Below, piece after piece: positions 12,453-14,786 of a stretch of DNA of 36,074 nucleotides. A program made the position numbers and the translations under genes. The stretch lies in assembly GCA_028278605.1 (NCBI GenBank), contig JANQEB010000140.1, positions 1 to 36,074 of the forward strand, given 5' to 3'. The notes beneath the pieces were generated by a model, which was not told the origin of the DNA, ran no database searches, and saw only the letters and a list, made by a program, of their open reading frames with translations. Source of the stretch: Candidatus Gastranaerophilales bacterium (GTDB lineage Bacteria; Cyanobacteriota; Vampirovibrionia; Gastranaerophilales; UBA9971). Each line of letters starts with the position of its first letter. Position 1 is the first letter of the stretch.

Positions 12453-14786
12453 TTATTGTTGTGATGCAAATGCAACTGAAAGTATTTCATCAGGGTTAAT
12501 CTGAGCAACTCTTGAGCCGTCAGGCTTAACAACGTAAGCAATTTCATCACCTGATACTTTAAGTATACCAACAGTACCGCTAAGCGCTGTCCTGGCTGTA
12601 TCGAATACTCCAACGAACGGGTCTGTAAGCGCCATTAAGTAGCTTCTTCCTGCTGCCGGGATTTCTCCGTTGAATAATTCGTTTGTACCGTTACCAATGT
12701 TACACAGGAAGTTTTCAACTGTGTTACCGGCGATAATAGCTGCTCCACCAGCGGTTCTGCCTGCAACACCGGCGACTTTACCGGGCCAGCTGAATGGCCA
12801 TGCCAGGAACCTGCCGATGATGTTAGGATTATCTTCCTGAACAACTGTTGCAGAAAGGATTTCTCTAGGAAGGGTAGTTTTGCAGCCGTCGTTTCCCATA
12901 GAAGTAAATTCTACCCTGATAGCTCCGGACTGGCCTATTCCTGGTCTTACGACTTCGGAGACTTTACCTCTTACTACTGTTCCTGCCGGGTAGAAAACGC
13001 CGTCCATATTTACAGGTTCTGTTGTTTTCGCAACAATTCTATCGCCAACTTCACTGGTTCTGGCTGAAACTATATCTTCAAACTGCATTTTAAGAGTTGG
13101 TATAGTTGTTGTTACGACCTGCGGCTGTAACTGGGCTGCCGCGCCTGTTGGTTGCGGGCATGGCGCAAGAGCCAGTACTTCTCTTAATTCATCGACCATT
13201 GAAGCAACTTCTGACCTTGAAGCAATATCATTAGGCCTTATACAATTACCGTCAGGAAGATCACAAAGGATTCCCGCCTTAAGTGATTCTGCCACATGTG
13301 ATGCAGCCCAGGCTGGTATCTGGTTAGAATCAGGGTAACAGCTAAGGATTTGTTGTGCTTCACAGGCTGAAATCTCGCCGGGAATTGCCTTGGCTATGCT
13401 GCTTAATGCTTCAGCTCTTGTTACAGGGTCTTTAGGCCTGAACATACAGTTTGGATAGCCTTCCATTACTCCGCTGTTGTAAGCTTTGTCAATATCAGCA
13501 TTTGCCCAGTGGCTTAAAGGTACATCATTGAATATTTGCTGCTGGAAGTCGGGAGTTCCCTCAAGAGCTGCGCCTGCTACGATTGCGCTTGCAAACTCAT
13601 CTCTGAGAATAGCAAGGTTTGGCTTGTAAGTCCTGTCAGGATAGCCTGCAAGAACTCCTTGAGCTGCGAGTTTATTAATATCGCACCCTGAAATCATCTG
13701 GTTGCTTACGTCAGGGAACTGAGGGCCTACCGGGCAGGCTGCTCCTGTAGATTGAGGAATAATCACAGGAACAAGAGCAGTTCTCTGGATTTGAAGACCG
13801 CTTGATGTCTGGATTGTTCTTGGGCAACCGCTTAATTGTGAACCTATACCTGTTGCGCAAGGATCACATGGGTTACATGGGTTCATTGCCATTGGAACCG
13901 CCGGAGCGCATGGATTACATGGGTTTGCCATAGGCTGGCATGGGTTGCAGGGATCACATGGATTTACCGGGCAAGCCGCGCCTGTCGGGAATGGATAAAT
14001 AGGTGCCGCTGCTCCCATTGGTGAGCATGGGTTACATGGGTCGTATGGATATAATGGAACCGCTGCGCCTGTTGGGCATAACGGAGCGCATGGGTTGCAG
14101 GGATCACATGGGTTTACCGGACAAGCCGCGCCTGTTGGGTACATTGGCATTGCAGCGCCTGTCATACAAGGATCACAATATGCTGATTGCAGAACTCTTG
14201 TTGTTCCGGGGATGCTACACCTTAAAATTTCAAGGCCTTGTGCAACCTGTACCGGGCATACAGGACCGCAAGCCCCGCCTGCCTGTCTTGTAGGCATAAG
14301 TGTAAGGGCCCCGGCCTGTGGAACAGCGGAAATACCTGCGCAGTTCGTTGAATTTACAGCTACAGCTTCTTCGTCTCCGCCAATTTGTACCATCTGGCTG
14401 CCTTTTGGAATAACAACGCTTGAGCTTCCGATATCCGGGAATGCATATGCCTGTCTTTTGATAATTTTTGCGTTAGGAGCACAGTTTGGAATTACTCCTG
14501 TAATAGGTTCGCAAACCGGAGCTGCTCCGCCCGGGCATTGGGGTTGTGATAATAATGGTGAGTACACTTCCTGCGGAAGTCCTGCCTGGGGCAGTAAAAT
14601 TGGGACTGCCGCGCCTGTTGGGCATGGGCATGGTTCTACAGGACATGGCGCAGGACATGGCATTTGTACTCTTGGCGGCGGGCAAACAGGTGCTGCTGCG
14701 CCGACCTGATCAGCACGTGCAATACCGCCTAATGTCATGATTCCTATTGACAATGCGGCTGCTACTGATAATTTTTTCAAGTTCAT
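12453..14786 (-). CDS. Secreted Cys/Pro-rich S-layer homology (3x SLH) protein
   Basis: Start reassigned to the ATG at 14786 (AAGGAGG RBS); signal peptide ending ARA; SLH motifs [41 protein letters not shown]-terminal beta-rich domain ([10 protein letters not shown]). Confidence 0.88.

Follow-up and report, generated by a model that had tools for sequence, protein, structure and literature searches.

What does a bacterium gain from a secreted protein that joins wall-binding domains to some forty cysteines? The question is raised by one gene on contig JANQEB010000140.1 (assembly GCA_028278605.1) of a Candidatus Gastranaerophilales bacterium, a stretch of 36,074 nucleotides which was analysed as a whole and which we call the window. 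The gene encodes 777 amino acids (aa), with a signal-peptide-like start, a long region rich in cysteine and proline, three S-layer homology (SLH) domains and a C-terminal part made of beta strands and Gly/Ala-rich helices. A first-pass annotation, made without database searches, had read the product as a candidate disulfide-crosslinked or metal-binding envelope scaffold. On the basis of structure models we conclude that the C-terminal part is a remote VirB10/TrbI-like domain, and the likeliest role of the protein therefore shifts to that of a connector, or ring, between cell wall and outer membrane. In the reading that we favour, and to which we give roughly an even chance, the SLH domains hold the wall, the VirB10-like head lies at the outer membrane, and hinge-like Cys/Pro segments are stapled by disulfides. 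The window is contig C261 of a genome of 2.6 Mb in 308 contigs, 92.5% complete, which is called G000 in the coordinates below.

Results

Three SLH domains with a probable wall ligand

The Pfam SLH model (PF00395) matches three stretches of the protein (E 1.5e-27, 95.7 bits against a cut-off of 20.8), and cysteines do lie in this part, as the first-pass annotation had described; they number 7. Nothing besides SLH was found when the whole protein was scanned with Pfam at E up to 1, in particular no OmcB/OmcA, metallothionein, metal-binding or porin family. NCBIfam gave far-sub-threshold matches only, such as por_somb (cyanobacterial porin) over aa 377-403, that is, 27 residues of the first SLH domain, at 16.6 bits against a cut-off of 100. 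In the full-length model (predicted local distance difference test, pLDDT, 69.9) the SLH domains score above 94, and their fold matches those of SpaA-SLH (6cwc; Z 20.1, root-mean-square deviation, rmsd, 2.4 over 159 residues) and Sap-SLH (6bt4, a structure that includes a pyruvylated unit of the wall polymer; Z 18.9, rmsd 2.6 over 162).

Pyruvylated wall polymers are established ligands of SLH domains, and are given as such in the parts of the Witwinowski preprint that deal with them. The genome encodes a CsaB-like pyruvyl transferase (PS_pyruv_trans, E 2.3e-45, at G000:C109), and a pyruvylated polymer would be the ligand here as well. Both the fold and the transferase gene speak for the wall anchoring through SLH domains that had been proposed from the sequence.

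A C-terminal domain with a VirB10/TrbI-like fold

When the family profile was searched by sequence against the PDB, it returned SLH chains only, plus two chance matches at E ~0.47, and no VirB10 chain at E up to 10. The C-terminal domain was recognised from its model, which spans aa 540-777, was built with a 70-row alignment and reaches a pLDDT of 78.3. It consists of a beta barrel, three long inserted helices and then the last strands. In a Foldseek search of the PDB, ranks 1-13 were all VirB10-family chains (E 8.8e-5 to 2.1e-3, probability 0.97-1.00), among them CagY, TrwE, the Xanthomonas citri VirB10, pKM101 TraF, ComB10 and a Legionella Dot/Icm dome chain. VIA, a structure aligner independent of Foldseek, gave Z 9.2 for ComB10 (rmsd 2.7 over 103 residues), 9.1 for 6gyb, 8.9 for CagY and 8.6 for both TrwE and TraF. 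The rmsd was 2.7-3.0 over 95-103 residues for ComB10, 6gyb, TrwE and TraF, and the alignments cover the whole domain, from model residues 13-23 to 237-238. The beta-rich domain and the Gly/Ala-rich helices, which the first-pass annotation had noticed as separate parts, are thus both present, but in the model they form a single domain.

Relatives of this domain were also sought by sequence. An exhaustive phmmer search against 1.84 billion representatives gave 92 proteins at E <= 0.001; of the 26 that were scanned, nine carry SLH, four match Gly-zipper families, and four match TrbI below threshold (E 2e-7 to 4e-3). By hhalign, the family profile aligns with a 245-aa secreted open reading frame (ORF) of the same genome that itself has a weak TrbI match (probability 70%, E 4e-5). 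This ORF (G000:C240:2215-2952 (-), locus L004 1174-1911) matches TrbI below threshold at E 0.015, has Gly/Ala-rich helices, and seems to be a free-standing relative of our C-terminal domain. The ESM Atlas placed the domain in its own Melainabacteria clusters, with a weak connection (0.80) to a cluster in which 24% of the members have TrbI; we take this as a lead only.

The likeness to VirB10, TrbI, ComB10 and CagY lies in the barrel fold and in the helical insert between strand segments. Presumably the helices sit there as the VirB10 antenna does, although no residue-level alignment confirmed the position, and we take the Pro-rich region upstream of the barrel to be a feature that VirB10 shares with our protein. 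The differences are no less clear. VirB10 has a two-helix antenna, whereas three or four long helices are found here; it has an inner-membrane anchor in place of a cleavable-looking signal peptide; and it lacks the inserted SLH domains. Furthermore, our protein fails family membership both by sequence (Pfam TrbI) and by gene context.

The three long helices of the insert have a mean Kyte-Doolittle hydropathy of 0.45-0.65, with 2-3 charged residues each. G673 and R677 are invariant, and N688, E691, E703 and the AAGRS at 711-715 nearly so. Gly/Ala-rich helical hairpins recall the Gly-zipper lipoproteins, of which SlyB and YfgH are described, in the passages covered, as outer-membrane proteins; a 493-aa paralogue (below) and distant relatives have Gly-zipper matches. 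However, the helices of the 777-aa protein match no Gly-zipper model (PF13488, PF13441, PF05433) at E up to 5, are amphipathic, and come without a lipobox. The insert also matched NuoJ, NuoK and MrpG (Z ~8-9), which we rejected as evidence of a membrane location, these values being within helical-bundle noise: for helical bundles, a VIA Z under ~13 may mean merely a common arrangement. A four-copy complex prediction of aa 549-777 (score 0.00, controls not run) left the fold of the partner uncertain in one run or more, and we give it no weight in either direction.

Two smaller folded elements precede the SLH domains. The beta module of aa 90-190 has strands within aa 95-182 and a pLDDT of 70-81 for aa 90-140; its Q112 is nearly invariant and its P117 invariant. 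No fold match was obtained for it, the VIA list for the full-length model being filled by SLH and helices. The strands of the beta hairpin at aa 323-341 have a pLDDT of ~89. With the full-length model, ComB10 and CagY align from as early as residues 320 and 313; in this model, therefore, the hairpin before the SLH domains packs on the barrel that follows them, and the SLH trio would be in effect an insertion between hairpin and barrel.

Distribution and paralogues

Of the 8000 candidates scored in a word-indexed search, 171 proteins reached E <= 0.001. Source names, available for few of these homologues, call them SLH-domain proteins of Candidatus Gastranaerophilales. Most homologues cover either the full query or its last 58-75%, that is, SLH and C-terminus, the N-terminal part being variable.

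With the C-terminal domain as query and E <= 1e-10, members were found in 37 of the 41 genomes sampled from the order, including 26 of the 27 high-quality ones. By family the counts are 9/9 (f1), 9/9 (f2), 3/3 (f50), 3/3 (f52), 5/5 (f54), 4/5 (f55), 1/3 (f56) and 0/1 (f53). The phylum sample gave 121/123 in f2, 3/3 weak matches in f3 and 0 in all other families. In the class sample, families outside the order showed weak partial matches only (best E 1.2e-8); these lie in ORFs of 200-470 aa and cover the barrel's first half. As far as these samples reach, the combination of SLH with a VirB10-like domain has been found so far in a single order of non-photosynthetic relatives of cyanobacteria, Gastranaerophilales. 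The first-pass annotation had seen here a candidate for a novel system, and we found no paper describing SLH, a Cys/Pro region and a VirB10-like domain together: a literature search joining S-layer homology with VirB10 returned none, one on Cys-rich proteins of Gastranaerophilales returned none of relevance, and the passages covered on Melainabacteria, SLH and the outer membrane do not describe the protein.

SLH domains occur in two ORFs of this genome, the one studied here and a 493-aa ORF on contig C92 (G000:C92:11028-12509 (-), locus L002 439-1920). The latter has three SLH domains with a Cys-rich insert (DCTDC...CEKPC...) between the second and the third, a beta domain, and two helices that are Gly-rich and hydrophobic (hydropathy 1.7-1.8), with a Gly-zipper_Omp match below cut-off (E 0.022). 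A BLASTP comparison of our C-terminal domain with this paralogue was not significant (E 0.34); by hhalign, the alignment with our family continues from SLH into the first beta strands. Layout and hhalign together are suggestive only of kinship between the two C-termini. The paralogue has as neighbours an Omp85/FhaC-like ORF and a secreted ORF of 641 aa whose tail is rich in Pro, Gly and Tyr (C92:12843-13775 (-) and C92:14753-16678 (-)); these two may form a two-partner secretion pair.

A paralogue of ~480 aa is also present in many genomes. Four genomes of f2, a sister family, have 3 ORFs each with SLH matches, 12 in total: a ~690-aa orthologue in each, one 476-aa paralogue (E 1.4e-39 with the C-terminal query) and seven others of 382-456 aa. 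Two of these seven were read (381 and 424 aa, both in G099), and they have a similar terminal beta domain, in one of them with Gly-rich helices.

Relation to SLH-OprB porins

Among the outer-membrane tethers of diderm Terrabacteria are SLH porins of the OmpM/SomA-SomB/SlpA type. Our protein resembles these SLH porins in being secreted, in having SLH domains, which bind modified peptidoglycan or a pyruvylated polymer, and in belonging to a diderm related to cyanobacteria; moreover, its genome has the CsaB-like gene, and true SLH-OprB proteins exist elsewhere in the class and in some families of the order. It differs in having no beta-barrel porin or OprB match and a VirB10-like C-terminus instead, and in the internal position of its SLH domains, after ~330 aa rich in Cys and Pro. 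It has three SLH domains against a single one in the two SLH-OprB proteins that we scanned, and a short linker where OmpM, as we take it, has a coiled-coil stalk.

In the class sample OprB domains were found in 0/32 genomes of f2, 0/12 of f3 and 0/30 of f42, and in 15/17 of f43, 8/9 of f44 and 14/14 of f46. The genome of the window (92.5% complete) gave none, nor did G418, the second genome of that genus, or G426; the order sample, which partly overlaps that of the class, again gave none in f2 (0/9). Among five OprB ORFs scanned, three (440-538 aa) are without SLH and two are true SLH-OprB porins. One of the latter belongs to G430 (f56), which has no member of the VirB10-like family at E <= 1e-10; f2 and the genome of the window show the reverse. 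A clean replacement of OmpM across the whole order was considered and rejected, since other genomes of the order do have OprB and one has both proteins (see Discussion). To judge by gene content, the family overlaps the classical tether and stands in for SLH-OprB in some lineages. In the parts that concern these bacteria, the Witwinowski preprint reports OmpM homologues in Melainabacteria, and Soo et al. (2014) close somA/somB homologues in all Melainabacteria.

The cysteine/proline-rich region

The protein contains 41 Cys, 91 Pro, 99 Ala and 67 Gly, and 2 His in total. Cysteine is concentrated before the SLH domains: aa 1-354 hold 32 (aa 26-345 hold 31, with 60 Pro), as had been counted, and 2 are found in the C-terminal part. 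The estimate of ~40 cysteines for the whole was likewise accurate. Compared with the crude proteome of the same genome (2093 crude genes, 1.13% Cys), the ORF has the highest Cys count of all, and 31 Cys in 320 residues has a binomial P of 2e-19. The NPC and DPC triplets noticed in the first reading number 14; over 20,000 shuffles of the region they averaged 0.38 and never exceeded 4. GAAxP occurs 7 times there, against a shuffle mean of 0.08. GAA.P has 14 occurrences in the crude proteome, 8 of them within this ORF, and ten xGAA sites (TGAA, GGAA, MGAA and VGAA were searched) lie outside the signal peptide. The DNA of aa 191-320 is built of twelve 9-nt-periodic units and includes a 52-nt duplication of 94% identity (13938-13989 and 14088-14139), therefore the region grows by repeat expansion.

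Much of it is predicted to be disordered. The pLDDT is below 50 for aa 19-70, 78-84 and 86-89 and also for the aa 191-320 segment, and in the full-length model aa 19-89 and 191-304 are largely disordered. We examined its conservation in 70 homologues, kept at <80% identity to one another. The part before the SLH domains ranges from 197 to 556 aa and from 1 to 54 Cys, with a median of 23.5 Cys (8.1%). Loss of the cysteines in orthologues had been named as what would speak against the scaffold; in fact at least 10 are found before SLH in 67 of the 70, and the Cys columns at positions 35, 48, 55, 84, 227, 230, 368, 475 and 635 are conserved at 63-86% (the first four at 73-86%). Successive cysteines are most often 3 apart, and the residue seen most often on either side of them is Pro. 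To go by the homologues, the region is a lineage-variable add-on, missing from shorter paralogues. An Fe-S site for the CxxCxxCxxxCP at aa 227-238 was rejected, given that the second repeat loses the pattern, that the start is of Sec rather than twin-arginine type, and that the segment is predicted to be disordered. An ESM Atlas search with the N-terminal region gave no usable match.

The search for Dsb oxidases suggested by the first-pass annotation was rewarded. The genome encodes a 389-aa VKOR-DsbA fusion with a CPFC motif in its DsbA-like thioredoxin domain (G000:C189:672-1841 (-), locus L003), and VKOR is present in 38 of the 41 genomes of the order and in 27/27 high-quality ones. Given this conserved enzyme, the Cys/Pro segments are likely oxidised to disulfides. 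Their CPxCP motifs bring to mind antibody hinges.

Other secreted Cys-rich proteins are encoded in the same genome. Two small Cys/Pro-rich ORFs, of 164 aa with 15 Cys (G000:C107:13509-14003 (+)) and of 128 aa with 5 Cys (G000:C207:440-826 (+)), share the same kind of ending, a GAAAP..CCPQ-like motif and then an aromatic tail. Four further ORFs, type IV pilin-like and with FSLAE/FSLVE-type N-terminal motifs, have 19-36 Cys each (3.4-5.6%), therefore secreted Cys-rich proteins are a wider trait of this genome.

Could the protein, then, be primarily a disulfide-cross-linked envelope mesh or the coat of a resting cell, its C-terminal domain merely nucleating oligomers? The extreme and conserved richness in Cys, the VKOR-DsbA oxidase conserved in the order and the GAAAP...CCPQ ending shared with small secreted proteins all fit such a mesh. 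Precedents are found, as far as the passages covered go, in the Cys-rich YTV proteins present in wall preparations of planctomycetes (PMC8567305) and in the disulfide-linked envelopes of chlamydiae (PMC6752827). OmcB, OmcA and the YTV proteins are indeed similar in being secreted, Cys-rich envelope proteins of organisms that encode disulfide enzymes, but no sequence family is shared by Pfam, only the composition; in our protein the cysteines lie in Pro-rich, disordered, repeat-expanding segments set on SLH and VirB10-like domains, and cross-linking there is a prediction. Moreover, the best conserved parts are the SLH and VirB10-like domains, whereas the Cys/Pro region is nearly Cys-free in 3 of the 70 homologues; outside its own genome, the 15-Cys small protein of C107 is found in 3 of the 9 members of its family that were sampled and in 0/31 genomes of the other families in the order; and a developmental or sporulation context is not evident. 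On balance we regard a mesh or coat as rather unlikely.

Genome context

Three Omp85 matches (best E 2e-52, in a 666-aa frame) were found in the genome, therefore the organism is a diderm in which an outer membrane is expected. Two ORFs with an OmpA domain are also present. No type IV secretion system (T4SS) gene set could be assembled: the genome gave no TrbI match over cut-off, CagX/VirB9 matched only below threshold (E 2e-7, 31.4 bits where the cut-off is 34.2) and the loci show no conserved neighbours, while ATPases were not searched. The CagX match is to a 162-aa secreted ORF (G000:C147:1099-1587 (-)) within an apparent flagellar export operon (fliP/fliQ/fliR-like by eye).

This context bears on a further possibility, namely that the protein is a wall-anchored outer-membrane channel, a VirB10-like ring with pore-lining helices that would serve as a conduit for secretion, uptake or pilus passage. 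The fold of the C-terminal domain invites that idea, the helices carry conserved polar residues as a pore lining might, and the genome gave no match to the OprB porin domain. But the lack of a T4SS context and of conserved neighbours weighs against a channel, and the several paralogues per genome, some without helices, fit a structural family better than one machine. We hold a channel to be distinctly improbable.

Least probable of all, to the point that we give it little credence, is a periplasmic metal or sulfide sponge, in which a Cys/Pro region held on the wall by SLH would bind Zn, Cu or Cd or buffer redox: the ~10% Cys and frequent CxxC spacing of the N-terminal region suit it, but the paucity of His, the Pro-flanked position of most Cys in a region predicted to be disordered, the failure of Pfam to find a metallothionein or metal-binding family and an encoded oxidase that would tend to close thiols all argue otherwise, and the conserved VirB10-like domain would be left unexplained.

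Gene organization and neighbourhood

The gene is monocistronic. Its Shine-Dalgarno-type AAGGAGG and the 12-bp stem of its own terminator bear out what had been noted on a ribosome-binding site (RBS) and terminator (Table 1). A signal-peptide-like start, equally foreseen, recurs in the listed homologues; it is of Sec type and would be cleaved. Just upstream of the divergent ParE-like toxin ORF no antitoxin ORF of at least 30 aa was seen. The flagellar and MlaE genes of the window point to a motile diderm with outer-membrane lipid maintenance.

Table 1. Coordinates of the features discussed (positions in the window unless a contig or locus is named)
Feature	Position	Strand	Remarks
Longest ORF	12453..14804	-	783 aa; sole long ORF at this place
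Coding sequence	12456-14786	-	777 aa from ATG at 14786
RBS AAGGAGG	14793..14799	-	6 nt before ATG at 14786; read from sequence
Intrinsic terminator-like hairpin and T run	12404..12431	-	12-pair stem, 6 GC pairs; directly 3' of stop codon
aa 1-25, signal-peptide-like N-terminus (MNLKKL..., hydrophobic core, ARA then DQ)	14712..14786	-	read by eye
aa 26-89, first Cys/Pro-rich segment (CPPP, CPAPCP, CPCP), predicted disordered	14520..14711	-	
aa 90-190, small conserved beta module (RQxYAxP block)	14217..14519	-	
aa 191-320, repeat-rich Cys/Pro segment, NPC/DPC triplets and TGAAxP motifs	13827..14216	-	
aa 321-354, conserved beta hairpin (GCPxxIQTxSG...LVP), then TGAAxP linker	13725..13826	-	
aa 355-545, three SLH domains	13152..13724	-	Pfam SLH
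aa 546-777, TGAAA linker and VirB10/TrbI-like beta barrel	12456..13151	-	structure model
aa 656-753, helical insert (3-4 amphipathic Gly/Ala-rich helices) between beta-strand segments of C-terminal domain	12528..12821	-	
ParE-like toxin ORF, divergent, upstream of the gene	15200-15493	+	PF15781, E 7e-16
72-aa ORF 3' of the terminator	11887-12105	-	small helix-turn-helix regulator-like by eye
Flagellin-like and FlgK-like (hook-associated) genes	19789-22389	-	same window
MlaE permease gene	10432-11166	+	same window
Pilin-like Cys-rich ORF, genome G000	C165:51-1970	+	
Pilin-like Cys-rich ORF, genome G000	C97:2861-5527	-	
Pilin-like Cys-rich ORF, genome G000	C97:5563-8244	-	
Pilin-like Cys-rich ORF, genome G000	C186:0-1103	-	
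SLH-OprB porin, G430 (f56)	L047 558-2351	+	597 aa
SLH-OprB porin, G420 (f52)	L048 986-2875	-	629 aa

Discussion

A connector between wall and outer membrane is the simplest reading of the protein, because SLH and a VirB10-like domain are joined in it, because it is near-universal in a diderm order, and because it is one of only two SLH proteins here. We propose the following scheme. A structural envelope protein specific to the order Gastranaerophilales would be exported by Sec, its signal peptide then being cleaved. The three SLH domains would bind the pyruvylated polymer on the peptidoglycan, and the VirB10/TrbI-like barrel, with its amphipathic Gly/Ala-rich insert, would form a head, probably oligomeric, that lies against the outer membrane on its inner side. 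Wall and outer membrane would thus be linked as they are by OmpM/SomA-type SLH porins or by Thermotoga Omp-alpha, with a different membrane anchor. The two disordered segments (CPxCP, NPCDPCNPC), with their cysteines mostly three apart and flanked by Pro, would act like antibody hinges; oxidation by VKOR-DsbA would give inter- or intra-chain disulfides that stiffen the assembly and staple it covalently. Contact with the outer membrane, oligomerisation and the disulfides are the steps that we infer.

Omp-alpha offers an instructive comparison. In Thermotoga, it makes an SLH-based link between wall and envelope through a long coiled coil that ends in one C-terminal transmembrane helix. Our protein is similar in that SLH is linked with helices, not with a beta barrel, at the membrane end, but differs in its globular VirB10-like head and its lack of a coiled coil. 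The Witwinowski preprint, in the passages covered, describes Omp-alpha as a major outer-membrane component of Thermotogae.

Several observations weigh against the connector. The first is length: the linker from SLH to barrel has ~15-25 residues, and the stalks of OmpM and Omp-alpha are presumably far longer. The second concerns the C-terminal domain itself. Its TM-scores against the VirB10 chains in Foldseek are low (0.27-0.40), because the helices differ, and a Pfam scan of the last 238 aa at E up to 5 detected no family, neither TrbI (PF03743) nor Gly-zipper. Moreover, amphipathic helices with conserved Arg and Glu would suit a soluble bundle, or a surface for binding another protein, just as well. 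Third, the Cys/Pro part is dispensable for the core function, because 3 of the 70 homologues are Cys-poor in their N-terminal region (P0016 and P0035 with 5 Cys each, P0043 with 1) and because a 482-aa paralogue in G159 has SLH and the same C-terminal domain without this region. The last is the setting of the gene. Across 15 orthologous loci (~1.5 kb on one side each) no conserved neighbours and no operon partners were found; the OmpA-domain ORFs may also bind the wall; of the 41 genomes in the order sample, 15 have OprB domains, among them 6 of the 9 that belong to the family of the window; and G420 (f52) has SLH-OprB and the VirB10-like family together.

With these points set against it, the connector can be carried one step further, as a tentative proposal that may well prove wrong. 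A VirB10-like domain of type IV secretion would have been recruited, on SLH, as a structural alpha-helical anchor in the outer membrane, making a third kind of tether beside the beta-barrel OmpM and the lipoproteins Pal/Lpp, and it would have replaced the ancestral SLH-OprB porin in lineages such as this genome and f2. Rings of the protein, stapled through CPxC hinges oxidised by VKOR-DsbA, would give an anaerobic gut bacterium a disulfide-reinforced envelope.

In conclusion, the protein is probably part of how Gastranaerophilales hold their envelope together. Outer-membrane tethering in Terrabacteria is currently described as OmpM-type, that is, SLH with a beta barrel. Gut and environmental relatives of cyanobacteria such as these may have an envelope built differently than assumed, because this genome has two SLH ORFs and no detected OprB, because the protein ends in a VirB10-like domain, and because f2 is likewise without OprB. 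A domain of VirB10 fold outside any secretion system would bear on the origin of that fold and on alpha-helical anchoring in outer membranes. Finally, the conserved Cys/Pro segments, together with VKOR-DsbA, provide a concrete case in which to ask if anaerobes reinforce the envelope by disulfides.

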